A DNA stretch of 59,018 nt from Prevotellaceae bacterium (GCA_022508615.1 JAFLUW010000001.1:10772-69789), one strand, 5' to 3'; shown: positions 1-59,018, counted from the stretch's first letter. The notes: generated by a model from the sequence alone, not told the origin. Numbers and translations are program-made.

Positions 1-36
1 AGTCTGAGTAAGTTGAAACTTAGTCTGAGAAAGTTT
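1..36. repeat. 21-bp quasi-palindromic unit array (partial unit plus one full unit; may extend beyond the window)
   Basis: AGTCTGAGTAAGTTG (1-15) followed by AAACTTAGTCTGAGAAAGTTT (16-36). Confidence 0.9.
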
Positions 37-166
37 CCGGCTGCTTTGCGTCGTCCGGAAATGGGCCTTTCATGCCGCCGGCGTGCGTTGTGTCTGCGGC
101 CGGGGGTCGGGGCTTTCGCGGCGGTGTCGCCGGGGTGGCGGCCCGGCGGTCGGGTTTGTTGCGGCG

Positions 167-2626
167 TCAGAAGGGGTAGCCGATGGCGAAGTGGAAGGCC
201 ATGCCGTCGCGGAAGCGTTCGAGGTTGTAGAAGCCCGTGCGGCGGGTGTCGTAGGGGGCGTGGAGGCCGATTCCCATGTCGAAACGCAACACGAGGAAGT
301 CGAGGTCGTAGCGCAGGCCTGCGCCCGTGCCCACGGCGATGCGGCGAAGCGACGCCGACGTGAGCTCGGCGCCGGGCCGCAGCGCGTCGGCGCGCAGCAA
401 CCAGACGTTGCCGGCGTCGAGGAACACGGCGCCGTTGAGCGAGCCGAAGAGACGGCAGCGCAGCTCGGCGTTGGCTTCGAGCTTGAAGTCGCCGGTCTGG
501 TCGATGTAGGCGTAGCGCTTGTCGGGCGAGCGGTAGGAGCCGGGTCCGACGGTGCGCACGGCGAAACCGCGCACGCTGTTGGCGCCGCCGGTGTAGAATT
601 GTTCGGCGTAAGGCGCGCGCAGGCTGTTGCCGTAGCTCACGACGGCGCCGGCCATGAGGCGCGAGGCGAGGTTGAGCCGGCGGCTGAGGCGCCAGGCCTT
701 GCGGGCTTCGGCCGTGAGGCGCACGAACTGGGCGAAGGGGGCGCCGAGTATCTTTTTCCCCTCGGTGGAGAAGGACTGTCCGCAGGCGGCATAGAGCGCG
801 GAGACGATGTTGCCGGCCTGTTTGGCCGAAACTTGCAGCATGAAGGGGTGGCTCGTCGAAAGGCCGCGGTTGAGCGTGAGGGTGTAGCCCGCGGAGGGGA
901 TGAACTGGTCGCGCATGGAGACGTAGAGCGTGGGGTTGGCCGCGGTGATGGAGTCGAAGACGGCCGTGGAGGACGAAAGTTTGTCGAAGTCGAGCGAAAA
1001 GACCGTCAGCTCGTGGCTGAGCGCGGCGCGGCGTTGCCAGCTGTAGGTCATGGAGAGGCCCGAGGAAATCATGCGGAAGAAGCCCGAACGGTTGCGCCAG
1101 TCGAGGTCGGCCGAAAGACGCGTTCGGGCCGGAAAGCGCAGCCGGCGTCGCCGGTGGCCGGGCATGAGCAGCGAGGGAAGCTCGACGGAGAGGCTCGTGC
1201 CCAGCTCGTAGCTGTCCCACGAGGCGCCTTCGCGCCGGCGGGCGGCGCCGAAGCTCCACTCGTAGGCGCCGAAGATTTTCCATGCCACGGTTTCGCCGCC
1301 CCCGAAAGCGTTGCGTTTCGAGAGTTCGTAGGCTACGCCGGGGCCGATCTGCTGGTTGCTCTTGAGCGTGGCGTTCGTTTCGAACGAGGAGTTGTAGAGC
1401 TTGTCCATGACGGCCGTGATGTGCATGTCGAGTGTGTCGCAGGCGGCGGTAGTGTCGCGCGGCGTGTAGTTGACGCTGAGATTCGAGAAAATGCCGAGGC
1501 TTTGGAGCTTTTCGACGGTGGTTTCGTCGTGGTGAAGCGAGTAGGGGCGGCCCGTGCGCTGCGTGACGGCCTGACGCCAGAGGCGCGGCTTGACGGGCAT
1601 GCGGCTGCCGGAGTAGCGGTAGACGTGATTGCCGCGGGAAAGGCTGTGTTCGGCCTGATAGTCGCCCGGCGCGAACATGTCGACCGTGAGGCTGCCGATG
1701 GTCCACGGGCGGCGGGCGCGCTCGGGCCGGTGGGGGTCGGCCGTGACGCGCAGTTGGACGAAACCTTTGCGCTGCAAGGTGTCGGCTTCGTAGAGAGTGT
1801 GGCTGGCGGTGTAGTAGTAATAGCCGTTTTCGCGCAGCAGGCGCTCGATGCGGCTGCGTTCGTCGGAAAGCGCCGCGGCGCTGAACGCACGCCCCTTGCG
1901 CAGCAGGCTCTCGCGGCGGTGGGCGCGGAGAATGGAGTCGGCATGCAGGCCGAAACCGCCGACGGTGATGCTGTCGAGGCGCCAGAGGCGGCCGGCCGTG
2001 ACGTGGTAGGCGATTTTTGCCTTGCGCGGATTTTTCTGGGTGAGCACTTCGTAGTCCACGCGGCCCGAGAAGTAGCCGTAGCCGCGGAGCGTGGAGGCGG
2101 CGACTTTGGCCCGCACTTCGGGAGAAACGTTGCTCACGAGAACGGGCGGCTGAGAGAAATTGCGGAATATCCAGCGGCCGAGTTTGCCGCGGCGGTCTAC
2201 GAAGGCATTGTAGATCCACAGGCCCGTCTGGAGCGGCGAGCGCAGCGACGACGAGCCGAAAAGGGCGCCGTTGGGGGCATAGGCCAGCACGCCGTCGACT
2301 TCTTCCTTGGCTGTGAGGAAGTCGGCCAGGTCGGCTTTGGCTGCGGCCGCTTCTTCGGGCCGGGCAGCGGGCGTTTCGGCGACGGCGGCGCCGCTGCGGC
2401 CTTCGAGCGCGGCGCTCACGGCGCGTGCGGCTTCGGCTATCGAGGTGATGACGCCGGCGGTGTCGGTCTTTGCGCGCGGATTCTTGCCGGGAGCGTCGCT
2501 GTAATCGATGCGGTCGATGCCGATATAGAGCTGTTCGCCTTCGGGCAGATGGCTCGTAGTGGAGCAAGCGGCCGAAAGCAGCACGGCAAGCAGCAGAAGC
2601 GGAAAGACTTTTTGGGAAAGATGCAT
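167..2626 (-). CDS. tamL: Omp85/TamA-family translocation and assembly module lipoprotein (TamL)
   Basis: Start MHLSQKVF with lipobox LLSAAC; POTRA-like region; barrel motifs YTGGANSVRGF and FLDAGNVW; C-terminal FAIGYPF; adjacent to tamB. Confidence 0.88.
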   Translation of the reverse strand: MHLSQKVFPLLLLAVLLSAACSTTSHLPEGEQLYIGIDRIDYSDAPGKNPRAKTDTAGVITSIAEAARAVSAALEGRSGAAVAETPAARPEEAAAAKADLADFLTAKEEVDGVLAYAPNGALFGSSSLRSPLQTGLWIYNAFVDRRGKLGRWIFRNFSQPPVLVSNVSPEVRAKVAASTLRGYGYFSGRVDYEVLTQKNPRKAKIAYHVTAGRLWRLDSITVGGFGLHADSILRAHRRESLLRKGRAFSAAALSDERSRIERLLRENGYYYYTASHTLYEADTLQRKGFVQLRVTADPHRPERARRPWTIGSLTVDMFAPGDYQAEHSLSRGNHVYRYSGSRMPVKPRLWRQAVTQRTGRPYSLHHDETTVEKLQSLGIFSNLSVNYTPRDTTAACDTLDMHITAVMDKLYNSSFETNATLKSNQQIGPGVAYELSKRNAFGGGETVAWKIFGAYEWSFGAARRREGASWDSYELGTSLSVELPSLLMPGHRRRRLRFPARTRLSADLDWRNRSGFFRMISSGLSMTYSWQRRAALSHELTVFSLDFDKLSSSTAVFDSITAANPTLYVSMRDQFIPSAGYTLTLNRGLSTSHPFMLQVSAKQAGNIVSALYAACGQSFSTEGKKILGAPFAQFVRLTAEARKAWRLSRRLNLASRLMAGAVVSYGNSLRAPYAEQFYTGGANSVRGFAVRTVGPGSYRSPDKRYAYIDQTGDFKLEANAELRCRLFGSLNGAVFLDAGNVWLLRADALRPGAELTSASLRRIAVGTGAGLRYDLDFLVLRFDMGIGLHAPYDTRRTGFYNLERFRDGMAFHFAIGYPF

Positions 2627-2657
2627 GACAAGTCGGTGGAAATGGACGCGGAGGGCC

Positions 2658-5600
2658 TCAGTCTCCGGAAGAAGAGGCAGACGCGGGCGCGCCGGTGTCC
2701 TTTCGGCGCGTGCGGAACAGGAATAGTTCGCCCAGACGCTCTGTTTTGCGCCGCAACATGAGGCCGGCGCCCGTGCGGGTGTACTGTCCTTCGAGCGGAT
2801 CGGTGGCTGATCGGTCGTAGAAGGCGCGGACGTAGCGCGTGGAGCCGCGGTCGAGGCGATACTCCACGGAAATGTTGTCGATGAAAGTTTCGGCGGAATT
2901 GACGGCCTCAGATCCGGTGGAGACTTTGCCGCCGACAACGACGGCAATGCGGTCGTTCCAGAAACGTTTGGCGAAGCGGAAAGAATAGTCGGTCGTCGTG
3001 GTGCCGGCGGCGGTGGTATTGTCTTCGACGCCGAGACTGATGTCGACGGTGCGCAGGGCTGAGCCGGCAATGTTCTGAATTTCGCTTTGCAGGAAAGCGT
3101 TGAGGGCGTTCGAGGCCTTGAAGCCGCCCGAGCCGGAGGCCAGCGATTCGTCGGTGAGGTACATGCCGGTGGCGAGCATGGCCACTGCGGCTTTGGCGCG
3201 GCCGGCGTCGGTCATGGCGCGCAGTTGATTTTGCACGCTGAGGTCTTCGGGGGCGTCGATGGTGAAAGTCAGGCCCATGTCGGCGAGGGCCTGCGTGATG
3301 TGGAGCCCGACGTCGAAGTTCACGCTACGCGGCATTTCGTTTTCGGTGACGGTGGCTTTGACGCGCTCGGTGGCGGCGATGTCGAGCGTGGGATTGGCGG
3401 CGTCGCCGGTGAACTCGATGTAGGAGCCTTGGGCCAGTGAGAATGTTTTGAGCGGTATGACGGGCAGTTCGTACTTCATTTCGCCGGAGTTCATCGTGAT
3501 GCGGCCGGTCAGACGCATGTCGCCGGTTTCGGTCATGCGGAGCGTGAGGCTGCCGCCGCCTTCGACGTCGACATAGCTTTGGCCGTCTTCGGAAAGCAGG
3601 CAGTGGAAGCGTGCGGCTTCGGCGACATCGATGCCGAGAGTCATGTCGAAAGTGCCCTGAGAGAGTGGTGTTTCGTCGTAAACGCGGGTGGAGTCGTTGA
3701 AGTCGGTGAAACGCACGAGTGAACTGAGACGGTCGTCGGCGCTGAGGGGGGAGTCTTTGAGGATATAGGTGACATCGGTGCCGCCGAGCACGCCGAGCCG
3801 GCCGCGAATGACAAGATGGTCAAGCGTTCCGTTGAGTGTGCCGTCGAAATCGGCCAGTAATTTGCCGTAGACGAGGCTTTCGCGCTTTCGGCGGGCGTTG
3901 ATGAGCTCGTAAGAGCGGGCTCGCATGGCCAAACCGAGGCTTATGCGGCTCAAATCGGAGAAATTTACGTCGCCGCTGACCGTGAGCGGCTCGCTTCCGG
4001 CGGACCGGAGGGAGAAATTGTCGAGCAGGATGGCAGAATGTCGGACATAAACGGGCGTTTCGGCCATGTGCAGGTCGAAACCGTAGGCGGGCGAATGAAG
4101 ACGTCCCTGACGGAAAGCCAGACTGCCGTCGAACACGGGTTTTTCGAGCGGCCCGCTGATGTCGAGCCGGCCCGAGGCCGCTCCGGCAAGGGCTACGTCG
4201 GTTCCGGCAAGGAAACCGTTGGCCATAGTCAGGGGGAAATCGTTGAGCACGGCGCTGCCCTCGAAAGTAGCGTCGGTTTCGTGGAATATGCCGCTCAACT
4301 CGAGTACTTCGAGCGAGTCGCTGCGTAAAGTGGCCGCGAGTTGATGCAAGCCTTCGCCTTCGGGAGTGTAACTTCCTTTGAGTCCGAGATTGCCGAGCGG
4401 GGCATCTTCGAAAGTAAGCGCGTCGGCGGCGAGTGCAAAGTCGGCCGATATGCGTTTCCGGCTGTCCTGTGTGGCGCGCAGCCGGCCCGAGAGCATGCCG
4501 GAAAGGCGTGGCATGAAAGGAAGTACGGAAGAAAGTTCGCCAAGATTGACATGGCTGAGCGCAAGGGTCATGTCGCTGGTGCTGTCGGCGGGAGCACCGT
4601 AGAGTTTCAGGCCGGTTCCGTCGTCGGCCAACAGGTCTATGTCGGCCGAGACGCCGCGGCGGTTGAGCCGGAAGTAGTTGTCGGGATTTACGCGGAAGCT
4701 GCGGTAAGCGATGACAGGGTTTGCCGGCTCGATGGTGGCCGTCAGGCTGCTGTCGGCCAACGTGGCGCGCAGCCCGAAGTCGATTCCTTTGCGGCCGTCG
4801 CTGTCGAAAAACTTTATTGCGGCGCCGACAGCGTCTGTAAGCAGGAAAGCGTCGGCCTCGGCACGGAATTTGTTGGGATTATGTTTGGTATAGTTGCGAA
4901 TTTCGCTGTGCAACCGCATACCGTCGGCTGTCTGCGTGAGCCGGGCTTCGATGGTGTCGATTTGCATGGAGCCTGTGTCGAAAGTGCCGGCTGTAAAGTG
5001 TCCGCTGACGCCGTCGTCCGGATTGGTGACAAGGTCGAGGCGGAGACTTTCGAAAGACATGCCCTTATATTTAAGGACGGAGTAGAGCGGATTGCGCTTT
5101 CCGGCAGCAAGATGGAGCGCTGCAGGCGGAAGACTCTGGCGCAAAGCCTCGTAATCGAGCGTGCGGCGGTCGATTTGCTCCATGAGAATTCCGACAGTCC
5201 GCCCGAAAGCTGCACCGATGTCTTCGGGTGCTTGTCCTGCGTCGAGACTCAGCACGAGGTCGCCCGAGTTGATGCGGGCCGAGGTACTGTCTTCGCGGGC
5301 CGAAAAGTCGAACAGCAGGTCGCGGGCCGAAATACTTTTTTTCGGTGTGAGAAAGCGCAGATTCTCCAGGCCGCCTGCCAGGCCGTAACGTCGGAAATGC
5401 CGGTCGGAACGGGCTGCAAGCCGGAGATGTCCGCCCGCTGCGAGCGTGTCGGCCATGCCGGCAAGTTGCCAGACGGGTACTTCGTCGACGTCGACTGCGA
5501 GCGTGAGGGAATACTCCTTATCTAATACGGCGTCGAGCCGGCCTGTAGCGCGAACTACGGCGTTGTCGGCCGCGAATGTGGCCGTGGCTTTCCCGTTGTT

Positions 5601-7361
5601 CAGGGCAGCGTCGAATTTCAGACTGCCCAATTGATATTTGTCGAAAACAAAGTCGCTGACGTGGCCCTTTGCTGTGAACCGAGCGCCGTGTGCAGTGGGG
5701 TCGAAGCCTCTTCCGCGCGCTTCGAGGCGTGCTGTGGCCGCGCCGAACCCCTGTCCGGGCAAGAAAGCGCCGACGGGGAAGCGCCGGGCGTCGACAAGCG
5801 CCGAATAGGTTTCGCTTTCGAGGTCGGCATAGCCTTTGATTCGTGCCTGTCCGCCAGCCATGAGGCGCAAGTCGGCCTCATAGCGTTCTCCGCGGAAGCC
5901 TGCTGTCCCTTTCAGCCGCAGTCCGCGCGGCAGCGCCAGCCCTTCGGGCAGGAGAGGGCGCAATGCGGCTGTATGGCCGAGCGAAGCATCGAAATTGAGC
6001 GTGCCGCTACGCTGCGGGGTGGTCAGCCTTTCGGCGTGGCCCGCTGCTGTGAGGCGTGCAATGCCGCCCAATGCCGCTTCGAGGCTGTCTATGTGCAAAT
6101 GGTCGAGATTTCCGCCGGCCCGACCGCGCACTGTGAGCGTTTCTTGAGGATAAAGTTTCAACAACGCGGCGTCCACTATGCCGCCGGCCAACGACGCGAC
6201 GTCCTCGTGGCCTATGGCGGCGTCGATGTCGAACGTAAGGCTGCCGTCGCGGCCTGCTGCCAGTGCGCGCCAGGGCAGAACGAGGCCGATATCGGCCCGC
6301 GAGTGGCGCGTGCGCAGTCGGAGTGCCGGCACACGCAGCTCCGCGGAGTCCATATATATATGTCCTGCCAAATCGGTCACTTCCAACCCGCCGCGTTCGC
6401 GCAGACGAATGCCGCTGGCCGCGAGTTGCAGCGTGCCGTCGGCCCGGTAGAAGATGCTGTCGGCCGTCAGTGCGAACCGGTCTATCCGCAAATGCGCCGG
6501 GTCGAGCCCCGGGGCAAAAGTTTCAGCGTCTTCGGGCGAAGCCGAAGCTTGCGGGCAGAGGTCGGCGCCGAGCTGGCAGCGCGCAAGCCTGAGCCGGCCG
6601 ACTGTATAGTTGCCCTTTCCGGTGTCGAAACAACCGTTGTCGAGCGTGGCGCGGCCTATGGCCGTGCGAACGAACATCGAGTCGCCCGGCAGCGCAAGCC
6701 TGAGCCGCGTGTTGCGCAGTTCGGCGCGCGCCAGCCGGATGTCCCAGCGCGAATCGGAGGCTGACGTGTCGGCCGCGGCCGTGTCCGAGAGCACCACCAG
6801 CAGATCGGCGTCGCGCAGACAGACTTCGTCGAGCGCGATACGCTCCCGCCGCCATTCGATGCCGTGGCTCGCAGCCGTGAGCCGGCCCACACGGCCCTCG
6901 ATGCGCGTGTCGCTGATCCAGTCTTTCGTGCCGAGCACAGCGTTGTAGAGTCCGAAACCCTCGATGTCGGCCCGTCCGCGAAAGAGCGGCCAGAAAGCCA
7001 CGTCGAGCCGCAGGGAGCGGGCGGCAACAATCGTGTCGCGTCCCTCGCAGGCCGAAAAGCTATTCGCAGCAAGGTCGAGCGGAAAAGCCAGCCGCACGTG
7101 GTCGATGCGAATGTCGAGTCCCGTTTCGGCCGAAAGGCGTTGGCAGGTTTTGTCTGCGAGATATTGCTGAACCGGCGGCAGATAGACGATGATGGCCAAT
7201 ACGAAAAAAAGTGCCACCGGCGTTAGGGCGACGGCGGCAAGCCATCGGCCGGCGCGGCGTGCGCGGCTTTTTGCCGGACGCGCCGCGCCGGTGGTGTCGT
7301 CTTTGCGCAACTTTTCGCCGGCATTTGTTTCGGGTGTTTCCGTAACGGGCTTGGGGTTCAT
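2658..7361 (-). CDS. tamB: Translocation/assembly module TamB (DUF490)
   Basis: About 1567 aa from MNPKPV; single N-terminal TM (LFFVLAIIVYLPPVQQ); long beta-taco body; C-terminal DUF490-type motifs (GSYIEFTGDAANPTLDI, DYSFRFAKRFWNDR). Confidence 0.88.
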   Translation of the reverse strand: MNPKPVTETPETNAGEKLRKDDTTGAARPAKSRARRAGRWLAAVALTPVALFFVLAIIVYLPPVQQYLADKTCQRLSAETGLDIRIDHVRLAFPLDLAANSFSACEGRDTIVAARSLRLDVAFWPLFRGRADIEGFGLYNAVLGTKDWISDTRIEGRVGRLTAASHGIEWRRERIALDEVCLRDADLLVVLSDTAAADTSASDSRWDIRLARAELRNTRLRLALPGDSMFVRTAIGRATLDNGCFDTGKGNYTVGRLRLARCQLGADLCPQASASPEDAETFAPGLDPAHLRIDRFALTADSIFYRADGTLQLAASGIRLRERGGLEVTDLAGHIYMDSAELRVPALRLRTRHSRADIGLVLPWRALAAGRDGSLTFDIDAAIGHEDVASLAGGIVDAALLKLYPQETLTVRGRAGGNLDHLHIDSLEAALGGIARLTAAGHAERLTTPQRSGTLNFDASLGHTAALRPLLPEGLALPRGLRLKGTAGFRGERYEADLRLMAGGQARIKGYADLESETYSALVDARRFPVGAFLPGQGFGAATARLEARGRGFDPTAHGARFTAKGHVSDFVFDKYQLGSLKFDAALNNGKATATFAADNAVVRATGRLDAVLDKEYSLTLAVDVDEVPVWQLAGMADTLAAGGHLRLAARSDRHFRRYGLAGGLENLRFLTPKKSISARDLLFDFSAREDSTSARINSGDLVLSLDAGQAPEDIGAAFGRTVGILMEQIDRRTLDYEALRQSLPPAALHLAAGKRNPLYSVLKYKGMSFESLRLDLVTNPDDGVSGHFTAGTFDTGSMQIDTIEARLTQTADGMRLHSEIRNYTKHNPNKFRAEADAFLLTDAVGAAIKFFDSDGRKGIDFGLRATLADSSLTATIEPANPVIAYRSFRVNPDNYFRLNRRGVSADIDLLADDGTGLKLYGAPADSTSDMTLALSHVNLGELSSVLPFMPRLSGMLSGRLRATQDSRKRISADFALAADALTFEDAPLGNLGLKGSYTPEGEGLHQLAATLRSDSLEVLELSGIFHETDATFEGSAVLNDFPLTMANGFLAGTDVALAGAASGRLDISGPLEKPVFDGSLAFRQGRLHSPAYGFDLHMAETPVYVRHSAILLDNFSLRSAGSEPLTVSGDVNFSDLSRISLGLAMRARSYELINARRKRESLVYGKLLADFDGTLNGTLDHLVIRGRLGVLGGTDVTYILKDSPLSADDRLSSLVRFTDFNDSTRVYDETPLSQGTFDMTLGIDVAEAARFHCLLSEDGQSYVDVEGGGSLTLRMTETGDMRLTGRITMNSGEMKYELPVIPLKTFSLAQGSYIEFTGDAANPTLDIAATERVKATVTENEMPRSVNFDVGLHITQALADMGLTFTIDAPEDLSVQNQLRAMTDAGRAKAAVAMLATGMYLTDESLASGSGGFKASNALNAFLQSEIQNIAGSALRTVDISLGVEDNTTAAGTTTTDYSFRFAKRFWNDRIAVVVGGKVSTGSEAVNSAETFIDNISVEYRLDRGSTRYVRAFYDRSATDPLEGQYTRTGAGLMLRRKTERLGELFLFRTRRKDTGAPASASSSGD

Positions 7362-7444
7362 GGACAATGGCGTATTGGCCGCAAAATTAGTATAAATCCC
7401 CGGAGTTGCCAAACCTGCGGCCGGAATGGGCCGCAGGCCGGGCG

Positions 7445-7918
7445 TCAGCCGTCTGTCAGGGTGTCGAGACGGCTCATCACGAGTCCGGCCTCGAAGCCAC
7501 GGCCGAGCAGAAAGCGGGCCAGTTTTTCGCGGCGGGCGCGGGGTTCTTCGTTGTCGAGGCTCCGAAGTTTGGCACGGGCCGATGCCGCGAAGGCCTGTTC
7601 GTATTCTTCGCTGCCGATGGCGGCAAGCGCCTCGCCGATGTCTGTTTCCGAGAGATGCCGCGCGGTGAGCGCGGCGCGTATCTTCATCCGGCCCCACCGG
7701 CTGTAACGCAGTTTGTCGAGGGCAAACGCCCGGGCGTAGCGGTTCTCGTCGATGAAGCCCTCGCGCTCCAGACGGTCGGCCGCGGCGCGGGCTTCGGCCG
7801 CAGGCAGGCCGCGCCGGGCCAGTTTGTCGAGAATGTCTGCGCGGCAATGCTCGGCCCGGGCGCAAAGGGCGGCCATTGCGGCGTAGGCACTTTCGGCTGT
7901 GAGCGGTTGTCGGGGCAT
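7445..7918 (-). CDS. recX: RecX regulatory protein
   Basis: LCARAEHC, GFIDENRYARAF, WGRMKI and KLARFLLGRGF motifs. Confidence 0.9.
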   Translation of the reverse strand: MPRQPLTAESAYAAMAALCARAEHCRADILDKLARRGLPAAEARAAADRLEREGFIDENRYARAFALDKLRYSRWGRMKIRAALTARHLSETDIGEALAAIGSEEYEQAFAASARAKLRSLDNEEPRARREKLARFLLGRGFEAGLVMSRLDTLTDG

Positions 7919-7987
7919 GCTATATATAATAATGGGTGCGAGCCCGGATGGACGGGCTGTCAGTTTGTGCTGACACAAACCGACGGC

Positions 7988-8800: not shown

Positions 8801-8821
8801 GTGCGGAGGGGGAGGGGTGGA

Positions 8822-10111: not shown

Positions 10112-10322
10112 AGCTGATGAAGCGGGCTTGCGTCGTCCGCCGCTGCAAATGTACGCAAAAATCGCGACGCCGCGTTGCCCCGTGCCGTTCTATCTGTGCG
10201 CCGGCTGCGGCTGCGTGCGCGCGGCCGGCCGTTTCTCTCTGTCCGGCGGCTGTCCCTGCCGGTCGTCAGCCGGCTCGGGCGGCGGCGCAAGGCGCTGAAA
10301 GACAGTTCTTCGCATGGAGCGA

Positions 10323-10385
10323 AAACTTAGTCTGAGTAAGTTTGAACTTACTCAGACTAAGTTCAAACTTACTCAGACTAAGTTT
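10323..10385. repeat. 21-bp unit array, 3 units (cores F,R,R)
   Basis: AAACTTAGTCTGAGTAAGTTT / GAACTTACTCAGACTAAGTTC / AAACTTACTCAGACTAAGTTT. Confidence 0.95.
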
Positions 10386-10564
10386 CGCCTTTCGCCGGCT
10401 TGTTTCCGTCCGTCGCGGTGCAACATGCCCGTTGCGCTGCGGCGGTGCAGCTTTCCGGCCGTCGTGGCGGCCGGAGGTCGGGGCGAATGCCGGATTACTT
10501 TGTCGTTAGGTGCTGTCTGCGTGCTTGTACGATGAAAAACACAATGATTTGCACGCAGAAAAGG

Positions 10565-42923: not shown

Positions 42924-42955
42924 ACCGCTGTGTCGGACAAAGACGGAGATAGGCA

Positions 42956-43018
42956 AAACCTACAGGGAGTAAGTTTCAACTTAGTCTGAATTAGTTGAAA
43001 CTTACTCCCTGTAAGTTT
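42956..43018. repeat. 21-bp unit array, 3 units with variant cores
   Basis: AAACCTACAGGGAGTAAGTTT / CAACTTAGTCTGAATTAGTTG / AAACTTACTCCCTGTAAGTTT. Confidence 0.9.
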
Positions 43019-43064
43019 TGCCTCCGGCGCAGATACTGGCAATCAGGCCTTTCTTCGGTGCGCC

Positions 43065-44117
43065 TCAGTCCACGATGAGCATCACGTCGCCATAGGGCCC
43101 GAACTTGTAGCCCTCCTTCATGGCCACTTGGTAGGCGTGCATCGTGTAATCGTAGTTGCCGAAAGCCGTGGTCAGCATCAGAAGCGTGGAATAGGGCATC
43201 TGGAAGTTCGACAACATGGCGTCGGCCACGGAGAAGTCGTAGTGGGGGAAGATGAACTTGTTGGTCCAGCCCTCGAACTCCTTGATGCGGGCGTCCGGGC
43301 CTACGCAAGTTTCGAGTGCGCGCTGCACGGTCGTCCCGACGGCCAGCACGCGGTGGCCTCCGTCCTTGGCGCGGTTGACCGTGCGGCAGCATTCGGCGCC
43401 GACGAACATGGATTCGCTGTCCATCTTGTGTTTCGTCAGGTCTTCGACGTCGGTCTGGCGAAATGCGCCCAGCCCGCAGTGGAGCGTGAGGTAGGCTGCG
43501 TCGATGTCGGCCAGTTCCATGCGCTTGAGCATGGTGCGCGAGAAGTGCATGCCGGCCGTGGGGGCCGTGACGGCGCCTTCGTGGCGGGCGAAGACGCACT
43601 GAAAGCGCTCCAAGTCCTCGGGTTCGCTCTCGCGGCCGATGAGTCGGGGCACCGGAGCTTCGCCCAGGGCGTAGAGCGCACGGCGGAACTCCTCGTGCTC
43701 GCCTTCGTAGAGGAAGCGGAGCGTGCGTCCGCGGCTCGTCGTGTTGTCGATGACTTCGGCTACGATGGAGGAGTCGTCGCCGAAGTAGAGCTTGTTGCCG
43801 ATACGTATCTTCCGGGCCGGATCGACCAGCACGTCCCACAAGCGAAGCTCCTCGTTGAGCTCGCGCAAAAGGAAGACTTCGATGCGTGCGCCCGTCTTCT
43901 CCTTGTTTCCGTAGAGGCGGGCGGGAAACACCTTGGTGTCGTTGAACACGAAGACGTCGTGCGCAGAGAAATGCGAGAGCAGCTGCTTGAAGTTTTCGTG
44001 CTCGATGTCGCCCGTTTTGCGATGAAGCACCATCATGCGGCAGTCTTCACGGTTGTCGGACGGATATTGTGCGATAAGCTCCTGTGGCAGTTTGTAGTTG
44101 AATTGGGAAAGTTTCAT
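43065..44117 (-). CDS. queA: S-adenosylmethionine:tRNA ribosyltransferase-isomerase
   Basis: [40 protein letters not shown]. Confidence 0.95.
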
Positions 44118-44209
44118 GTATGCGTGTCGGTATTGCTGTTGTTGCGTTGTTTTTCGCTTTCGATGCGTTTTCTTTTGCGGTTATTGCCCGATTTTTCGTT
44201 GTCGATGCC

Positions 44210-44920
44210 TTATGTTTCGGGAATTTCTATGGTTTGCCGGCCGAGCCAGGCTTCAAAGTCGTCGATTGTCGGGAAACAGTCGCCGATGTTGTGGTTGCCG
44301 ACGCGTGTGCGCCGCAGGGCCGTCAGGTGCGCGCCGCTGTCGAGTGCCATACCGAGATCGCGGGCCAGCGCACGTATGTATGTGCCTTTCGAACAGACGA
44401 TGCGCAGGGTGATTTCCTCGGGCAGGCGGCTGTCGATCAGTTCTAATTCGTCGATGCGCAGCAGCCGGGGTTTGATTTCGACCTGTTCGCCGCGCCGGGC
44501 AAGGTCGTAGGCGCGCTTTCCTCCCACCTTGCAGGCCGAAAAGGCCGGCGGTTGCTGCCAGATGTCGCCCCGGAAGCGGCCGAGCGCCTCGTCGACGAGA
44601 GTTGACGTGATGTGGGCGGTGGGGTAGGTGCAGTCGATGTTGTGTTCGAGGTCGAAGCTCGGCGTAGTGGCCCCCAACCGCAGCGTAGCCACGTATTCCT
44701 TGACGCCGGTTTGCAGCTCTTCGATGCGTTTCGTGGCGCGGCCCGTGCAGACCACCATGACGCCCGTGGCCAACGGGTCGAGCGTGCCGGCATGGCCCAC
44801 TTTGAGCCGCCGTCCGCCCATGGCGCGGGTCAGCAGCCAGCGCACTTTGCCCACGAGGGCGAACGAAGTCATGCCAAGCGGCTTGTCGAAAGCCAGTATC
44901 TCGCCGTCGATGAAATTCAT
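44210..44920 (-). CDS. truB: tRNA pseudouridine(55) synthase
   Basis: [28 protein letters not shown]. Confidence 0.96.
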
Positions 44921-45732
44921 GCGCCGATAAAGTGGAGGGCGAAGGCTGCCGCGGCGGCTGCCACGCAATAGAGGGCAAAGTATATGAGTTTGCCGCGACG
45001 CACGATGCCTATCATCCAGCGGCAGGCCAGACATCCGCTGACGAAAGCGGCTGCAAATCCGGCGAAGAGGGCCGATGCAGAGAGGCCGCCCAGCGCTTCT
45101 GTCCCGCCGTCCTTGAATATCTTCAGCGTGTCGAGCAAGGCTTCGCCCAATATGGGCGGAATGACCATGAGGAACGAGAATTTGGCCATCTGTTCCTTGC
45201 GGTTGCCCAGCAAAAGGCCCGTGGCGATCGTCGAACCCGAGCGCGAGAGGCCGGGCAGCACGGCTACGGCCTGCGCCAAGCCGATGACGAAGGCGTGAAG
45301 CGGCGATATTTGCTCGCGCTGCCGCGGTCGGGCGAAGTGGGTGAAAGCCAGCAGGGCGGCCGTCAGCAACAGGCAGCAGCCCACGACGAGAAGCCCTTCG
45401 CCAAAGATGCTTTCGACTTGCTCTTTGAAGCAAAGTCCCACCACGCCGATGGGTATCATCGAGATGAGGATGTTCACGACGTAGCGTTGCTCGTCGTTGT
45501 ATCCGCTACCGAAGTCGAGCGAACCGCGCACGAGCGTCCACACCTCGCGACCCAGAACAACGAGCGTCGAGAGCACCGTGGCCACGTGTACGGCTATGGT
45601 AAAGGCCATGTTTTCCTCGGCTTCGATGCCGAAAAGGGCCGCGCCGATGGTCAGATGGCCGCTCGACGAGACGGGAAGGTATTCCGTGAGGCCCTGAACG
45701 AGACCTAAAACAAGGGCTTGCAGCGTATCCAT
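44917..45732 (-). CDS. uppP: Undecaprenyl-diphosphate phosphatase
   Basis: [24 protein letters not shown]. Confidence 0.95.
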
Positions 45733-45743
45733 CTTCTTTCGGC

Positions 45744-45968
45744 TCAGCTTTTAGGTTTGCGTATGATGGCGTAGGCCATGAACAGGTAGCCGAAGAGACA
45801 GACGGCCGGTGCCATGCGCACGCGTCGCACGCTGAAAATTTCAGGGTCGAATGTTTCGCGCGTCGAGCCTGTGCCCGACATGAGCACGAAGCCGGCGATG
45901 ACGGCCAGCATGCCGACAGCCAGCAGAATGAAGTTCACGCGGTCGAAAGCGAACGTTCTTTTTTCCAT
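45744..45968 (-). CDS. DUF3098-family small membrane protein
   Basis: [27 protein letters not shown]; located between ftsX and uppP. Confidence 0.85.
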
Positions 45969-46001
45969 TTTGTCTTATATATATAATGGGTGTTGGGAGA
46001 A

Positions 46002-46877
46002 TCAGTGCAGAAAGACTTCGCTGCCGCGCATTCTCAGGAAGCGGTTTACGCTGAAATAGGCGCAAACGAGCGTCAGCAGCATGCCGCAGCCGAGCACCAC
46101 GGCGAGCGTCGTGGCGATAACGGTCGGCGTGGCCAATGTCGCAACGTAAATGTCGAGCGAGAGCATCATGTAGATGCCTGTGCCCAATAGCACGTCGGCC
46201 AGCAGGCCGCTCACGAGCCCTATGCCCATGGCGCGCAGCAGGAACGGCCGGCGGATGAAGCGCCAGCGGGCGCCGACGAGTTTCATCGTGTGTATCGTGA
46301 AGCGCCGGGCGTAGACGTTGAGGCGTATGGTGTTGTTAATCAGTGCGAACGACACGAACGCCAGCAGTCCGGCCACGATGAGCATCACTAGCCCGGTCAG
46401 CGGCAGCGCGTAGTCCACGAAATTCATCATTTCTTTCGGATAAATCACGTCGGCCACGTCCTTGCGCCGCCGCAATTCAGGCACGTGGCGCTGCAGGCTG
46501 TCGGGGCAGGCGTATTCGGCTTTGAGATAGAGTTCGAACTCGTCGGGAATGGGGCTGTAGCCGAGGAAATCGCTCGGCGCTTCCTTCATGAGAGCCGCCA
46601 TCTCGGCCGTGCCGCGCTCCTTGGAGATGTAAGCCGTATGGCGCACGTAGGGAAGCCGCCTCAGCTCCGTCTGCATGCGGTAGAGATCGGCCCGGCTGAG
46701 GCTGTCGGCCACGAGAACCTGCAGCGTAAAGTTCTCGCGCAATTGTCGGCTGAAGCCTGCTCCGGCCTGAACGAAGAAAACGACGATGCCCAGCAGCAGC
46801 AGCACGAGCGTGGTGCTGATGCACGAACTGAGCGTGTTGAAAAGTCCGCCGCCATGGCGTTTGCGTGGAGAAGACAT
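46002..46877 (-). CDS. ftsX: Cell division permease FtsX
   Basis: ISTTLVLLLLG, LINNTIRL..RRFTIHTMKLVGA..FIRRPF. Confidence 0.92.
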   Translation of the reverse strand: MSSPRKRHGGGLFNTLSSCISTTLVLLLLGIVVFFVQAGAGFSRQLRENFTLQVLVADSLSRADLYRMQTELRRLPYVRHTAYISKERGTAEMAALMKEAPSDFLGYSPIPDEFELYLKAEYACPDSLQRHVPELRRRKDVADVIYPKEMMNFVDYALPLTGLVMLIVAGLLAFVSFALINNTIRLNVYARRFTIHTMKLVGARWRFIRRPFLLRAMGIGLVSGLLADVLLGTGIYMMLSLDIYVATLATPTVIATTLAVVLGCGMLLTLVCAYFSVNRFLRMRGSEVFLH

Positions 46878-47173
46878 GGGTACAATTATCGAAATTTGCC
46901 ACAAAATTACGTTTTTTTGTCCGACAAGTGCCCTTTGTTCCTTCACTTTTTACCGTGTGCGCCCGTTTCGGCTTCTTTCCCAGGTCGTTGCGCGGAAACT
47001 TAGAAGCCGTTGCGGCTTGTCGTCTGCGGTTGTCGTGCCCGCAGTTCCGCCCGGGTGTGGCGGGACGGGGTGCTTGTTTTTTTTGTTTCCGGACAGTTCG
47101 GTGAAATGCGCATTCTTGTCATTTTCAACGTACTGAATTTCTCTCTTTGTTGTCGATTCCGTAAATTTGCACC

Positions 47174-48686
47174 ATGCGTTTCTCTCCCCCCCCCTTATAT
47201 TTTTGGCGGCAGTATGCGTCGCGTTGTCTTTAGTCTCGTGTGAAGACGAGTCGGGCGAAGTTGTTCCTCAGTTGTCGGGAACCAATGTGGTCGAACTCGT
47301 AGTCGACGGCTATAAAGCCGTCGAGACAAGACCGGGCTGCCTCGAAGTATGCCTGCCCTACGGCACGAGGTTGCACGCCCTTCCCGGCACGATCGAGACG
47401 GACGGCGGTATGGCCGAAGTGCGCAGCATGCAGCGCGACTCGCTGGCTGCGGAGGCCGACTCGGCGGCCTTCGTTTTCGACTTGTCGCTGCCCGACACCA
47501 TCGTGGTCAGTGCATCGGACGGCCGTCAGGTCGTCTACACCCTCTCGGCGCACTTTTCGCATCTGCCCGTGGTCTATCTTTCGACGCCGGCGCCTGTCAC
47601 GAGCCGCACAGAGTGGACCGAAGGCTGCACGATGACCGTCTGCCACGCCGGTGCAGCCGATGCTTTCTATATGCCGGCGCCGAGGTGCGCGGCCGCGGTA
47701 ACTCCACGTGGAGCTGTCCCCAAAAGCCATACGCCGTCAGGCTCGGTAAGCGGGCCTCCGTGCTGGGCATGCCCGAGCATCGCCGCTGGGTGCTGCTGGC
47801 CAACTGGTTCGATCCTTCGAATCTGCGCTCCGAACTGGGCTTTTTTCTTGGCCGGCAGACGAGGCTTGCCTACACGCCGCGCACGGCCTTTGTCGAACTC
47901 GTTGTGAACGGCGAGTTTCAGGGCGTCTATCAGCTGGCTGAGCAAATCAAAATCGACCCTAACCGCCTCGACATCCCCGAAGAGAGTTATTTGCTCGAGA
48001 CCGACCAGCGCGCCAGCGCAGCGGCGGGCGACGTTTTCTTTTCCGTCGGACACATGACGTGGCCGGTCGTCGTCAAATCGCCCGATACGGCCGTCGGCGA
48101 ACCTGAATACGAACACATCGTCAGCTATATGGACGGTGTCGACCGTGCTCTTTTCGGGCCGGACTTTTGCGACGCAGCCCGAGGGTACGCTGCGTGGTTG
48201 GATGTCGACTCGTTTGTCGAATGGTATTTAGTCAACGAAATCACGAAGAACAACGACGCCATCTTCTTCGCCTCTTGTTTCATGCATCTCGCGCCCGGCG
48301 GCAAACTCACGATGGGTCCGCTCTGGGATTTCGACCTTGCTTTCGGCAATACGCTCTCCAACGGCAACGATGTCCCCGAGGGTTTCTGGATTAAGCGCGC
48401 CACGCCCTGGTTCGCCCGTCTTTTCGAGGACCCTGCCTTCGTGGCGCGTGTCAAGCAGCGCTATGCCGAAATCTATGCCGGCCGCTCGCAGTTGTTCCAC
48501 GAGCTCGACCGGCTGGCCGCCAGCCTTTCGCCTGCGGTGCCGGGCAATAATTCGGTGTGGAACTTCTACGACGGAGGTGCCGACGCGACCCGGGTGCTCT
48601 ATGCCTACGACGCCGATGTCGAACGGTTGCGCGATTGGCTCGAAATACGCTTCGAGTGGCTTCGGACGGAGTTCGGGAAAATGTAG
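47174..48686 (+). pseudogene. CotH-kinase-family lipoprotein, frameshifted at a C9 tract and at about 47670
   Basis: Lipobox LSLVSC and LPVVYL lie in one frame; RGRGNSTW, KPY, WVLLAN, GVYQLAEQ and GPLWDFDLAFG lie in another; the ATG at 47174 is in the third frame. Confidence 0.75.
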
Positions 48687-48786
48687 GCAGGCCGTCTCCC
48701 TCCTCTTTCTTCGTCTCGCTGCAAACCCGGCTGCGTGCCGGCCGTTGCCGTCGGGGGCTTCCGGCTTGTGCTGCCTGCGCCGTTTT

Positions 48787-48870
48787 CAGCAAACGCAGAG
48801 ATAGTCGAAACTATCTCTGCGTAAGTTTTAATTTAGTCTGAGATAATTCGAACTATCTCTGTGTAAGTTT
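48787..48870. repeat. 21-bp unit array, degenerate (3 clear units plus 1 weak)
   Basis: AAACTATCTCTGCGTAAGTTT (48808) / TAATTTAGTCTGAGATAATTC / GAACTATCTCTGTGTAAGTTT. Confidence 0.85.
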
Positions 48871-49071
48871 CCGCTTCCGTCCGGATAAAGGGCGGATAAG
48901 CTGCAAGTATTTTATTTTCATGAGATTATGGCGCGTCTTCCTGTCCGACGGACAGCGGCGGCTCCGCAGGGCGTGCATGGCCTGCGGAGCTGCCGCCGCT
49001 GCGCCCGTGGCTTTTCTTCCGGTGGGGCGAACAGTGCGGAAACGGCCGGTCGTCGTCTCCCGCGCTGCCGC

Positions 49072-49140
49072 TGCGGGTCGGGCGCGTTGCGTTGCGGGTC
49101 GGGCGCGTTGCGTTGCGGGTCGGGCGCGTTGCGTTGCGGG
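49072..49140. repeat. GC-rich 21-bp tandem repeat (3.3 copies)
   Basis: TGCGGGTCGGGCGCGTTGCGT x3 + TGCGGG. Confidence 0.95.
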
Positions 49141-49153
49141 CTGCCGGGTGGGT

Positions 49154-49195
49154 AAAAAGAAGCTCCGCCGTCCGGACAGAAGCGGACGGCGGAGC
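49154..49195 (-). terminator. Rho-independent terminator of ompA
   Basis: 13-bp stem GCTCCGCCGTCCG/CGGACGGCGGAGC, then TTCTTTTT on the minus strand. Confidence 0.8.
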
Positions 49196-49247
49196 CTTGG
49201 GAAAACATGTCGTGCCGCCGGCAGCGAGCCGGCCGCCGCAGGAAGAA

Positions 49248-50414
49248 TCAGTCGGCCTGTTCCTCCTTGGCTATGGCGATGACGGCGCGGTTGCTGTCGT
49301 TTTCGGCGAAAGGCTGTACGGTGTCGCCTTTGGAGTAGGCCTCGATGCGGCTTTCTTCGATGCCGAGTTTGATGAGCGCTGCCTTGACGGCGGCTGCACG
49401 CTCGCGGGAAAGGCGTTTGTTGATTTTAGCCGTGCCCGTTCCTTTGTCGGCATAGCCCGTGATGTTCGTGACTTTAGCTTTCGGGTGAGCCTTGAGCCAT
49501 GCGGCCAGCTTTTCGATTTTGGGCATTTCGGAGGCACGGATGACGCTCTTGTTGATGTCGAAGAATATTTCTTCGCGTGTTTCGAGCAGTATGACGGGCT
49601 CGGGCTTTTTCTCCTCGACAACGGGTTCGGGTTCGGGCTCCGGAGCAGGTTCGGGCTCGGGTTTGGGCACGACGACTACTACCGGTTCGGGCACGGGGGC
49701 GACGGGTGCAGGTTTGGCCTTCTTAAAGCCGAACTTGATTTGCAGGCCGAGCATGGCGGTCAGCTGCCAGTCGCCGCGGCCGTTGCGCTTGGAGTTGAAG
49801 CGGTCGTGCAAGTTGTTGGCGTCGACTTCGAGCGTGATGCCGAGGTGCTTGCAGACGTTGGCTTCGGCCATGAGGCCGGCGCGGAAGTTGTGTACGAGCG
49901 TATAGTCCTTCCATGCCAGCTCCTCGAAAGGCGCGCCAGCGGCCTGAAGGGCGTTGAAGTCGTCGTTGTCCCAGACATAGGTCAGGCCGACGCCGCCGAT
50001 GAGGTAGAGTCCGAACTTTTTCGCGCCGCATTTCTTTTTGGAAAAGAGGTTGACGAGGTTGACCATGAGGTCGGCGTCGGAGGTGAGGTAGTTGTAGTCG
50101 TAGACGCCCCAGCCTTTCACGCCGCCGCGGCCTTTCCAGCCGTTGACGTGCAGCCGTGCGCCGATTTCGGGGGAGAACATGGCACCGAGGCTTGCGCCGG
50201 CTGTGGGCGTGACGATCGAACCTTGTTTGCCGAGCAGATAGGCGCCCTTGGGGTTGCGGTAGTTGGAAAAGGTCAGCTGACCGCCGCCTTGAAGGCCGAT
50301 GAAGACATAGGGATATGGTTTGTAGGTCATCGACTGGCAGCAGGAGTTTTCCTGTGCCCGGGCTGCGCTGATCAGAAGCAGCAGGGCTGCCGCTACGGAC
50401 ATGAGCTTTTTCAT
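49248..50414 (-). CDS. OmpA-family outer membrane protein
   Basis: Signal peptide, beta-barrel, (PE)n linker, FFDINKS, GYADKGTG..NKRLSRERA, NRAV. Confidence 0.92.
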   Translation of the reverse strand: MKKLMSVAAALLLLISAARAQENSCCQSMTYKPYPYVFIGLQGGGQLTFSNYRNPKGAYLLGKQGSIVTPTAGASLGAMFSPEIGARLHVNGWKGRGGVKGWGVYDYNYLTSDADLMVNLVNLFSKKKCGAKKFGLYLIGGVGLTYVWDNDDFNALQAAGAPFEELAWKDYTLVHNFRAGLMAEANVCKHLGITLEVDANNLHDRFNSKRNGRGDWQLTAMLGLQIKFGFKKAKPAPVAPVPEPVVVVVPKPEPEPAPEPEPEPVVEEKKPEPVILLETREEIFFDINKSVIRASEMPKIEKLAAWLKAHPKAKVTNITGYADKGTGTAKINKRLSRERAAAVKAALIKLGIEESRIEAYSKGDTVQPFAENDSNRAVIAIAKEEQAD

Positions 50415-50513
50415 ATACTTGTTTTTTTGATTTTTAGGTTTGGCGACAAAGGTAAACATTTTTTTGTAGTGTGCAAAGTAGTGTACGCCGGGATTTTCGG
50501 GGCGCGGGCCGGT

Positions 50514-51761
50514 TCAGCGGTCGAATGCGGCGAGCCAGTCGGCCACGACGAAGCAGCTGCCGCCCACATATATGGTGGCTGCCGCGTCGCCGTCGGCCGC
50601 TGCGAAGGCTGCGCGGTAGGCCGCAGGGACGTCGGCGAAAGTTGATCCGGCAAGGCCGCAGGAAGCGGCTCTTTCGGCCAGTCGTTCGGCCGGCAGTGCG
50701 CGCCGCACGCCGGCTTGCGTCCAGTAATAGCGGGCCTGTTGCGGCAGCAGGCGGAGTATGGCGGAGAGGTCTTTGTCTTCGGCGCAACCGAAGACGATGT
50801 GCAGCGCCCCTTCGCCGGCGATGCGGGCCAGCCGCGGGGCCAGCAGCTGCCATCCGCCGGGGTTGTGGCCGGTGTCGAGCAGGGTTCGGCCGTGCCGTTC
50901 CCAGCGTCCGCGTGGTCCGCCGGTGAGTTCGACGACATGGCGCAGGCCTTCGTCTATGTGGCGCAGGCTGAGGCCGAAATGGCGGCGCAGCAGGGGCAGA
51001 CAGGCCGCAATGGTGCGCAGGTTGAGGCGCTGACAGTCGCCTTTGAGGGCGAAAAGTTCGCGGCGTGGGGCCAGTTCGTCGGTTTCGAGGTCTTCGGCGA
51101 AGACGAGCGGAGCGCCGGCTTCGCGGGCGGCGCGGACGAAGACGGGACGTGTCTCGCCGTCGGCTTCGCCCACGACGACTGGCGTCGCAGGTTTGATGAT
51201 TCCGGCCTTTTCGGCGGCTATCTGTGCGCGGGTGGCGCCGAGCAGGGCCGTGTGGTCGAGGCTGATGTTGGTGATGAGCGAGAATACGGGGCGGATGATG
51301 TTCGTGCAGTCGAGCCTTCCGCCCAGTCCGACTTCGACGACGGCCACGTCGACTGCGCAGTCGGCGAAATGGCGGAAAGCAAGGGCCGTGGTCAGCTCGA
51401 AAAACGAGGGATGCAGCGGCTCGAAGAATGTTCGTTCGCGCGCGATGAAGTGGACGACGGCTTCTTTCTCGATCATCCGGCCGTCGACGCGGATGCGCTC
51501 GCGGAAGTCGACGAGATGGGGCGACGTGTAGAGGCCTACTTTCAGGCCGGCGGCCTGAAGCATGGCGGCTATCGTGTGTGCGCACGAGCCTTTGCCGTTC
51601 GTTCCGCCGATGTGTATCGTCCGGTAGCGGCGGTGCGGGTGGCCGAGGCGGAGGTCGAGCGCGCGGGTCGTGGCGAGGCCTTCCTTATACGCGCCCGCCC
51701 CGACTTGTTGGAACAGCGGGGCGGAGGCGTAGAGATATTCGAGGGTTTCGTCGTAAGTCAT
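50514..51761 (-). CDS. folC: Folylpolyglutamate synthase/dihydrofolate synthase
   Basis: IGGTNGKGS, YTSPHL, EVGLGGRLDCTN, DH..LG..IAAEKAGI, DTGHN. Confidence 0.95.
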   Translation of the reverse strand: MTYDETLEYLYASAPLFQQVGAGAYKEGLATTRALDLRLGHPHRRYRTIHIGGTNGKGSCAHTIAAMLQAAGLKVGLYTSPHLVDFRERIRVDGRMIEKEAVVHFIARERTFFEPLHPSFFELTTALAFRHFADCAVDVAVVEVGLGGRLDCTNIIRPVFSLITNISLDHTALLGATRAQIAAEKAGIIKPATPVVVGEADGETRPVFVRAAREAGAPLVFAEDLETDELAPRRELFALKGDCQRLNLRTIAACLPLLRRHFGLSLRHIDEGLRHVVELTGGPRGRWERHGRTLLDTGHNPGGWQLLAPRLARIAGEGALHIVFGCAEDKDLSAILRLLPQQARYYWTQAGVRRALPAERLAERAASCGLAGSTFADVPAAYRAAFAAADGDAAATIYVGGSCFVVADWLAAFDR

Positions 51762-51836
51762 GCGTGTGGAGCTGAAGTGCCGGCGGCGCAGCGTGGCCGG
51801 AGGGCGGGTCTGTCGGAAACAGGCTTGTGTTCGTGG

Positions 51837-51899
51837 AAACTTGGTCTGAGTAAGTTTGAACTTAGTCTGAATTAGTTTTAACTTAGTCTGAGTAAGTTT
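51837..51899. repeat. 21-bp unit array, 3 units (F,F,F)
   Basis: AAACTTGGTCTGAGTAAGTTT / GAACTTAGTCTGAATTAGTTT / TAACTTAGTCTGAGTAAGTTT. Confidence 0.93.
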
Positions 51900-59017: not shown

Positions 59018-59018
59018 C

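Follow-up and report, generated by a model that had tools for sequence, protein, structure and literature searches.

In a 59,018-nucleotide stretch of DNA from a Prevotellaceae bacterium (GCA_022508615.1 JAFLUW010000001.1:10772-69789; "the window" below means this whole stretch), a 21-bp quasi-palindromic unit recurs at ten loci in short tandem arrays. We report that these arrays are real and genome-wide. They exclude one another within about 2 kb, and they stand in register with a helical periodicity of A/T dinucleotides that leaves its imprint on synonymous sites. Both the spacing rule and the register hold in the source genome, and in part in its relatives. What are the arrays for? We think it somewhat likely that these evenly spaced intergenic marks are high-affinity sites for a nucleoid protein that would coat the chromosome along one face, repeating every two turns. 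The existence of such a binding protein, and the direction of cause between it and the periodicity, are what we infer from these patterns.

The source assembly (G000) comprises 1.87 Mb in 156 contigs, with a GC content of 57.6% and a completeness of 86%; a self-trained hexamer model called 1461 genes in it, 84% of the sequence being coding, and the gene content is that of a Bacteroidales bacterium. Iterating a profile brings out 326 arrays, 823 units in all, where the reversed genome gives a single match. Counted in other ways, there are 775 profile matches against one in the reversed genome, and 591 units within four mismatches of a 19-nt core, again against one. A reading of the window made earlier from its sequence alone had described ten loci with 28 units that abut at exactly 21 bp, usually three to an array, and had proposed a whole-genome scan. 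All ten loci and all 28 units are present, and the scan extends the motif far beyond the window: three units make up 182 of the 326 arrays, two 74, one 49, four 20 and six a single one, and 293 of 308 neighbour distances below 120 bp equal 21 bp, with 10 more at 42 bp. The claim that the arrays are intergenic also holds, since only 5 of 326 overlap a called coding sequence by more than 15 nt. No replichore orientation of arrays was seen in G000. Contig edges touch 48 of 316 merged loci, which leaves some arrays cut, and in a strain comparison contigs break within arrays. The array at window position 42956 is not an assembly artefact, because contigs from an independent sequencing run (possibly not of the source sample) tile across it with one to three differences each. 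A softer search for hidden weak arrays in the gaps gave very few beyond the reversed null, and most of these lay far from strong arrays.

What is fixed in the unit is its arms. A2, A3, T5 and their mirror positions carry about 2.1 bits each, and the 7-bp core is variable. The sequence-only reading saw a near-perfect palindrome whose only breaks are a G:G pair and the central base; the palindromic arms stand genome-wide, and the G:G-mismatch core (GTCTGAG/CTCAGAC) occurs in no more than 372 of the 823 units. Where an array has three units, positions 6-16 of the first equal the reverse complement of the third in 32% of cases; shuffling gives 3%. This covariation is restricted to the outer-unit cores. 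Junction bases pair at chance (0.37 vs 0.37), and the middle unit retains its mismatch, its halves pairing at 0.34 where 0.53 is expected. The dyad ends at 63 bp; decayed in-phase units that flank it are unpaired. Flanks that the earlier reading noticed to be shared between loci are indeed present, and we read them as such decayed units. Cores are homogenised within each genome, and all 182 three-unit arrays are unique in sequence. The commonest core has at most a slight lean in co-directional gaps (78 vs 108) and the central unit none (25 vs 29). A companion motif, the direct repeat TGTAAAA-W3-TTTGACA, brackets about 19 arrays and occurs at 46 places, the reversed control having 3. Among 147 congeners, five others carry it at high copy number. 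Its pair distances, 18 distinct ones drawn from three genomes, cluster at whole helical turns (R 0.72-0.74; the copies are not independent).

Arrays are spread far more evenly than their available sites would dictate. The median gap from array to array in G000 is about 4.7 kb; among 191 gaps between merged loci, none is below 1 kb and six are below 2 kb. We permuted occupancy 2000 times in strata formed by the length of the gap and the orientation of its genes. The coefficient of variation of spacing is 0.44-0.49 as observed and 0.72-0.80 when permuted, and gaps below 2 kb make up 4% against 25%; none of the 2000 permutations was as low in the one or as extreme in the other. Restricting the analysis to confident genes leaves the spacing result unchanged. 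Where two neighbouring long intergenic regions lie less than 1.5 kb apart, both are occupied in 0 of 56 pairs and one is occupied in 43. The occupancy of long gaps climbs from 0 of 34 when another array lies within 1 kb to 59 of 69 when the nearest is 5-7 kb away. In three congeners with partial sequence the smallest gap also exceeds expectation: G131 (46 arrays in 257 kb, gaps mostly of 1.7-4.4 kb, p 0.031), G034 (19 arrays in 351 kb, smallest gap 6.7 kb, p 0.008) and G114 (23 arrays in 359 kb, smallest gap 3.6 kb, p 0.035).

The second line of evidence is rotational. Throughout G000, A/T dinucleotides oscillate with a period of 10.52 bp in the phase of the arrays. The relative amplitude is 0.27 at 150-500 bp from the arrays, 0.22 at 0.5-1 kb, 0.14 at 1.5-2 kb and 0.08 at 2-3 kb, and the periodicity is coherent over 2-3 kb. 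Pooled over arrays, the register reaches a z of 58, against 3.9 for randomly shifted anchors; z assumes independent positions, and the shifted controls are therefore the real test. The projection onto array phase is positive in 452 of 504 flanks. A component at 21.05 bp is detected both with and without anchoring, and held-out halves of the arrays reproduce the 10.5- and 21-bp templates alike. Within 1 kb there is also a small polar component, mirrored about the arrays (held-out z about 4-5). Far-field A/T peaks coincide with the TTA/TAA positions of the unit. A 50-kb control from Escherichia coli has no such line (1.5, against 7.4 in G000).

How does this rhythm coexist with genes? It is equally clear in coding and non-coding DNA. 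Third codon positions hold most of the signal (amplitude 0.09 vs 0.03), and at four-fold degenerate sites A/T content varies 2.5-fold with phase, from 0.105 to 0.268. Amphipathic helices are ruled out as the source because the signal is strongest at these positions and clear in non-coding DNA; by the account in PMC4132750, they would give signals of about 30 bp. An origin of the 21-bp component in a beat with codons is unlikely, since non-coding DNA has this component too and its phase is the same for either gene orientation. Inward genes near arrays have some frame bias. Periodic power is reduced in low-GC genes, in the most highly expressed genes and in the integrated element of the window. 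The phase of single-nucleotide polymorphisms, in 30 hand-picked rows only, gave a mean cosine of -0.14 with a standard error of 0.13.

The mechanism that we favour runs as follows. A twofold-symmetric protein would occupy each 21-bp unit and repeat every two turns along one face of the DNA. Everywhere, it would loosely read minor grooves narrowed at A/T (TTA/TAA, positions 5-7 and 15-17 of the unit); at arrays alone it would also read the AAC/GTT arms and so bind tightly. Three units with inverted outer members may form a symmetric platform. Long occupancy could write the rhythm into the genome, whether by selection or by mutation that depends on phase. Inside the 2-3 kb range of phase memory another array would add nothing or interfere, which would lead to even spacing. 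New arrays would probably arise by the copying of units or of 350-600-bp modules. The pitch, 10.52-10.60 bp across genomes, would fit nearly straight B-DNA and not wrapped or plectonemic DNA, going by the treatment of helical periods in PMC4132750.

G000 has five HU-family genes. If a nucleoid protein is responsible, the leading candidate, though individually an unlikely one, would be the IHF-like HU paralogue encoded at C66:21232-21504. It aligns with IHF-beta at the minor-groove arginine (the V45 position), has isoleucine at the arm-proline position, and its gene has the codon use of high expression. In the work covered by PMC4966879, E. coli HU binds straight DNA in couples about 20 bp apart, and IHF and Hbb read TTA through an arginine at the V45 position. 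No histone-fold gene (PF00808) was found in G000, which is 86% complete, DUF1931-type folds being outside the search. RHH_1 has no match in G000; HTH_17 has two, one of them in the integrated element of the window.

Several observations weigh against this explanation. E. coli HU is described as binding native DNA independently of sequence (PMC4966879). The AAC/GTT arm sequences are absent from the far field, and skew shows no significant correlation with the unit. Array strength has no predictive value for gap size (rho -0.03), and the coefficient of variation of spacing is not significant in G131, G034 or G114. Nor do arrays behave as nucleation points. Coherence across arrays, at lags of 0.9-2.4 kb, is 0.60, 0.51, 0.28 and 0.12, no higher than across midpoints (0.67, 0.54, 0.39 and 0.35); unanchored local power is nearly flat with distance from arrays; and neighbouring arrays have no mutual register (R <0.17). 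Because power is flat, coherence is not in excess and mutual register is lacking, the periodicity appears to be continuous and drifting, with the arrays riding on it. A half-turn mismatch over 5 kb requires a change in pitch of only 0.1%, and pinning combined with smooth drift would therefore fit as well.

The congeners add to the difficulty. We surveyed periodicity in 40 of them, sampling 9-20 kb of each in the band 10.45-10.65. Peak power reached 5.35 in G131 and 5.2 in G158, the null maximum being 2.08. Power is unrelated to the number of unit-frame matches (rho -0.06) and follows GC content (rho 0.45). The period of the line is 10.52 in G000, 10.56 in G034, 10.56 in G131 and 10.60 in G158. 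In G131 the register exceeds all 300 shifted controls with its phase unchanged from G000, which is the clearest agreement. In G034 the register is borderline, one test lying above and one just below the 95% control. G114 has arrays, no 10.5-bp line and no significant register; its records (L146-L164) have a broad weak peak at 11.3-11.5 bp. G158 has a strong 10.60-bp line (6.3-fold) and no frame match at all. In its intergenic DNA (L225-L236, L221, L247-L248), degenerate 21-bp runs of A-tracts and T-tracts can be made out by eye.

These points bear on a quite different account, in which the arrays are the cores of a selfish element, akin to a miniature transposable element with inverted repeats (MITE) or a repetitive extragenic palindromic (REP) sequence, that would be copied into intergenic DNA by an enzyme. 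Target immunity or purifying selection would then space the copies, periodic chromatin already in place would govern which DNA is accessible and so make them land in register, and the periodicity would have a separate cause. We regard this as unlikely, on evidence that pulls both ways. In its favour, arrays are not phase anchors, periodicity exists without the frame, and cores are homogenised within a genome. The dnaJ-folC junction described below was ancestrally empty and filled in one lineage. Arrays in G034 sit at the centre of 515-570-bp modules with 74-88% identity, and the flanks shared by a subfamily in G000 are 75-80% alike; both observations also count against our explanation, and copied modules show how arrays can spread and thereby keep this rival alive. 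The sequence-only reading had offered a mobile element resembling REP sequences or bacterial interspersed mosaic elements (BIMEs), with a cognate enzyme encoded elsewhere, and suggested looking for a gene flanked by arrays, either a Y1 transposase of the REP-associated tyrosine transposase (RAYT) type or a tyrosine recombinase. Some arrays do lie in copied modules, and a mobile component may exist. The cognate enzyme and other defining marks of such a system were not found. G000, at its present completeness, has no Y1 (PF01797) or IS4-type DDE transposase (DDE_Tnp_1), other transposase families being outside the search. No target duplication was detected: at 2-8 bp and offsets of -1 to 3, matches in 169 arrays are at the shuffled level (the ends of larger modules were outside this test). 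A GT(A/G)G foot lies within 6 nt of 3 of 621 array ends (CGTC, 5 of 621). Y1 genes occur in three of five array-rich congeners; we examined six loci of nine matches, and around the five genes of full length no array lies closer than about 1.4 kb, apart from one loose match with three mismatches. The uniqueness of every three-unit array also speaks against the selfish-element account, as does the equality of unit period and lattice period, with the TTA/TAA positions of the unit falling on lattice peaks. Two further observations concern these modules. High-copy modules bounded by the direct companion motif, spanning 33-58 helical turns, occur in G034 (L165-L184), G036, G112, G109 and G105, those of G034 having a polar array in the middle. 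In one G034 record (L271:931-1623) a 41-aa Y1 fragment ends about 70 bp from a module edge, a single case that may be insertion or chance.

Three other explanations start from the position or the shape of the arrays. Gyrase or another topoisomerase might use them as strong sites every few kb to relieve transcription supercoils, like BIME-2 in E. coli. Convergent junctions are enriched in length-matched gaps, as this would have it, and the gyrase motif has periodic GC flanks, BIME-2 elements being cleavage hot spots (PMC6379681). That motif, however, is described in the same source as spanning 130 bp at 10.75 bp, against 10.52 bp over 2-3 kb of genes and a 21-bp component here, and the fixed AAC/GTT arms imply base-specific readout. 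We consider the idea improbable. Still less probable is a role as RNA hairpins, bidirectional terminators or decay barriers whose symmetry is kept by template switching. Three-unit arrays do fold into long hairpins (-11.5 to -28.4 kcal/mol), their outer cores are often exact inverted copies, and convergent junctions are favoured. The stem does not appear to be conserved as a stem, however: outer-unit cores covary, but neither the junctions nor the middle-unit halves do. Runs of at least six T follow only 13 of 632 ends, there is no clear strand bias, 34 of 108 long divergent gaps in G000 are occupied, and neither spacing nor register would be explained. The earlier judgement that a plain terminator role is insufficient is thus upheld. 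Finally, the units could serve a LytTR regulator as operators or a tyrosine recombinase as core sites. In LytTR operators, repeats of 9 bp are separated by 12 bp (PMC6193735), a 21-bp period that the arrays match, and the unit divides as 7+7+7, one arm of which can match the IntDOT core GTANNTTT as given in PMC5812530. Yet a core site of the IntDOT type would have its recognition arm on either side of a 7-bp overlap, and GTANNTTT is found on one arm in 289 of 829 units and on both arms in 18 of 829. LytTR operators would be expected immediately upstream of promoters, that of the regulator's own operon included. The single LytTR gene has an array downstream of it, and arrays in general favour convergent 3' ends; apart from XerC/D-like genes and a fragment, the integrase of the window element is the sole tyrosine recombinase; and kilobase periodicity would be left without an explanation. 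We hold this reading to be very doubtful. Of the phased sites for a nucleoid or a recombination protein that the sequence-only reading proposed, those for a putative nucleoid protein gain strong indirect support from even spacing and register.

Gene context follows a clear preference. In length-matched gaps of 150-250 bp, arrays occupy 22 of 31 convergent, 36 of 95 co-directional and 2 of 28 divergent gaps. At the level of species, a search for the exact unit gave one stray match among 36 congeners; 24 genomes from elsewhere in the order had none. The doubled frame AACTW-N9-WAGTT occurs in 34 of 147 congeners with species-specific cores; G000 has 433 matches and the next congeners 50, 37, 22 and 21. 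An order-wide pattern search found one to four matches in 9 of 300 genomes, not above the reversed control. Alloprevotella records hold arrays with the cores of same-genus genomes. A comparison of filled and empty orthologous sites, as the earlier reading had suggested, came out at dnaJ-folC: the junction is filled here, and by inspection none of 26 relatives has such an array in this gap. It is a lineage-specific gain, because the gap is array-free in relatives and measures 0 or -1 bp in 7 of the 26 having both genes (three loci were without folC). In many congeners (L099-L127) this junction carries various lineage-specific palindromic repeats, from 0 to about 450 bp.

Farther afield, the frame is found in at least 41 stretches of a wider collection, including Treponema and Chitinophagaceae, where arrays are longer, have direct units and often precede a gene of one family. 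In ten records from Treponema and Chitinophagaceae/Bacteroidota (L021, L022, L025, L028, L043, L053, L055, L057, L058 and L024), long same-frame 21-bp arrays lie about 20-120 bp (in one case 400 bp) upstream of genes for proteins of 220-250 aa. This family has no Pfam match and is predicted to fold as a helical bundle with an FN3 domain. It is not the partner here, because it is found in 0 of 148 genus genomes (a search run without a positive control) and has no tblastn match in G000. HU-HIG was likewise rejected as an array-linked gene: it is near-universal in the genus, and three-unit palindromes lie near only 4 of 30 loci, with other motifs. In one record (L044:2030-2562) an HU-HIG-like gene has an array of three units 71 bp upstream. 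In G000 itself (C138:3800-7868, record L064), an array stands among an origin-like cluster of 9-mers, which we take to be DnaA-box-like, beside xerD; adjoining the cluster is a three-gene cassette of HU-HIG, smalltalk and what is presumably an amidase-like gene. Other 21- and 22-bp tandem families occur in congeners (L005, L216, L072, L071), for example with a TGTTACAAA-type unit. In G035 (L001:1499-1583) a frame array is inserted in frame after the signal-peptide-like N-terminus of a 566-codon open reading frame. A viral scan gave two matches, both coding repeats in phage proteins, which we dismissed as chance.

Within the window, the leftmost array (1..36) is a partial unit and one full unit and runs on across the scaffold gap to the left. 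Three units at 10323..10385 include a third that is an exact inverted copy of the first. At 19975..20037, the first of three units encodes the last codons and stop of argB (TAG 19990-19992; argB by TIGR00761), the overlap already noted in the earlier reading. Two strong units (24707-24748) and a decayed in-phase one occupy a convergent junction at 24707..24769. The dnaG gene has a two-unit array with a decayed in-phase flank downstream (29400..29441) and a three-unit array at the divergent junction upstream (31673..31735). A second divergent junction holds three units all in the same orientation (38702..38764). The convergent junction at 42956..43018 has three units whose outer cores are a variant (CAGGGAG / CTCCCTG) and inverted copies of each other, and that at 48787..48870 has four, more diverged. 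The last array, of three units, lies in the 173-bp dnaJ-folC gap (51837..51899). By hexamer-model gene calls, arrays stand at five of eight strand switches, as had been counted before. Rfam matches in the window are a tRNA and a c4-2 RNA only, with nothing at the arrays, and scans for sigma-70 promoters and terminators at 38400-52200 gave results at the shuffle level.

The 10.52-bp A/T periodicity, with its 21.05-bp component, runs through coding DNA of the whole window (1..59018) in array register. Over 19 flanks the pooled register z is 7.9, exceeding all 2000 shifted controls. It is weak at about 10500-16700, where periodic power is 2.7, against 6.4 at 20100-59000; that recently acquired DNA is without the rhythm, or nearly so, supports our explanation. 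An integrated element lies at 10645-16861, at a tRNA (16790-16861, minus strand), with no array inside and weak periodicity. It carries a tyrosine integrase (15207-16547), an HTH_17 gene near 13672-13815, a rolling-circle Rep of the Phage_CRI/G2P family (12641-13636) and the c4-2 RNA (11615-11690) between 38-nt direct repeats. Elsewhere, a G+C-rich 21-nt direct repeat has three copies at 49069-49140, 198 bp from the 48787 array.

The common view has nucleoid proteins of bacteria only loosely placed. If true, a helical register that stays coherent over kilobases and is tied to sites at even intervals would mean that chromosomes can be organised in another way, and that a force on codon usage has been overlooked. 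In its boldest form, which we offer tentatively and hold less firmly than the nucleoid-protein explanation itself, the entire chromosome of a Bacteroidales lineage would be packed in a protein lattice of 21-bp repeat that is rotationally positioned, pinned every few kb by palindromic arrays at species-specific spacing, and lasting enough in evolution to dictate synonymous codon choice at each turn of the helix. Bacteria would then have their own form of positioned chromatin, though no histone was found. The 63-bp array is a concrete probe with which to find the protein. Should the arrays prove selfish, the exclusion rule and the periodicity would still be measurable new facts.

How do the arrays compare with known systems? 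Our literature search, which covered few subscription papers, returned no description of the arrays, of their mutual exclusion or of a repeat-tied, kilobase-coherent periodicity in bacteria. Older surveys found persistent periodicity in some prokaryotes. Like REP sequences, BIMEs and REPINs with their RAYT (TnpA-REP) enzymes, as outlined in PMC6006769, the arrays are imperfect palindromes present by the hundred in intergenic DNA, lineage-specific, enriched at convergent junctions and inverted in their outer units. Unlike what that outline gives for them, the arrays are without a GT(A/G)G foot, linker or cognate Y1 gene, and have strict 21-bp abutment, mutual exclusion and a register with periodicity. 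BrickBuilt, a MITE-minisatellite of Porphyromonas gingivalis (PMC4596501), is likewise an intergenic Bacteroidales repeat, made of spacer-less tandem units (23 nt) in a larger module whose leader and tail are conserved. It has 19 copies against about 320 here, and 23-nt direct units against 21-bp mixed-orientation dyads; the portion of that paper drawn on here reports no spacing rule or helical register. The companion motifs here differ too, as direct repeats at whole helical turns.

Periodicity and palindromes have other parallels. The bacterial "structural code" of AT-tracts at about 11 bp also places A/T periodicity in coding DNA, most strongly at synonymous third positions; in the sections of PMC4132750 cited, such periodicities extend for about 100 bp, in contrast to the sharp 10.52-bp line and 21.05-bp component here, which persist for 2-3 kb and are tied to a repeat. 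HIP1 of cyanobacteria is a palindrome that is abundant, under selection and periodically spaced along the chromosome, and by the summary in PMC5861425 is a single octamer without tandem arrays. E. coli HU networks, together with IHF and Hbb, share couples about 20 bp apart and minor-groove contact, and the C66 paralogue carries what would be a TTA-reading arginine; E. coli HU differs in that native DNA is bound without sequence register, as far as PMC4966879 describes it. No HU lattice fixed in genomic register appears in the literature searched. BldC, as characterised in PMC5859096, is a cooperative filament that reads A/T-rich minor grooves on tandem repeats. It assembles head-to-tail on the direct repeats of promoters, whereas the units described here are dyad-symmetric and genome-wide.

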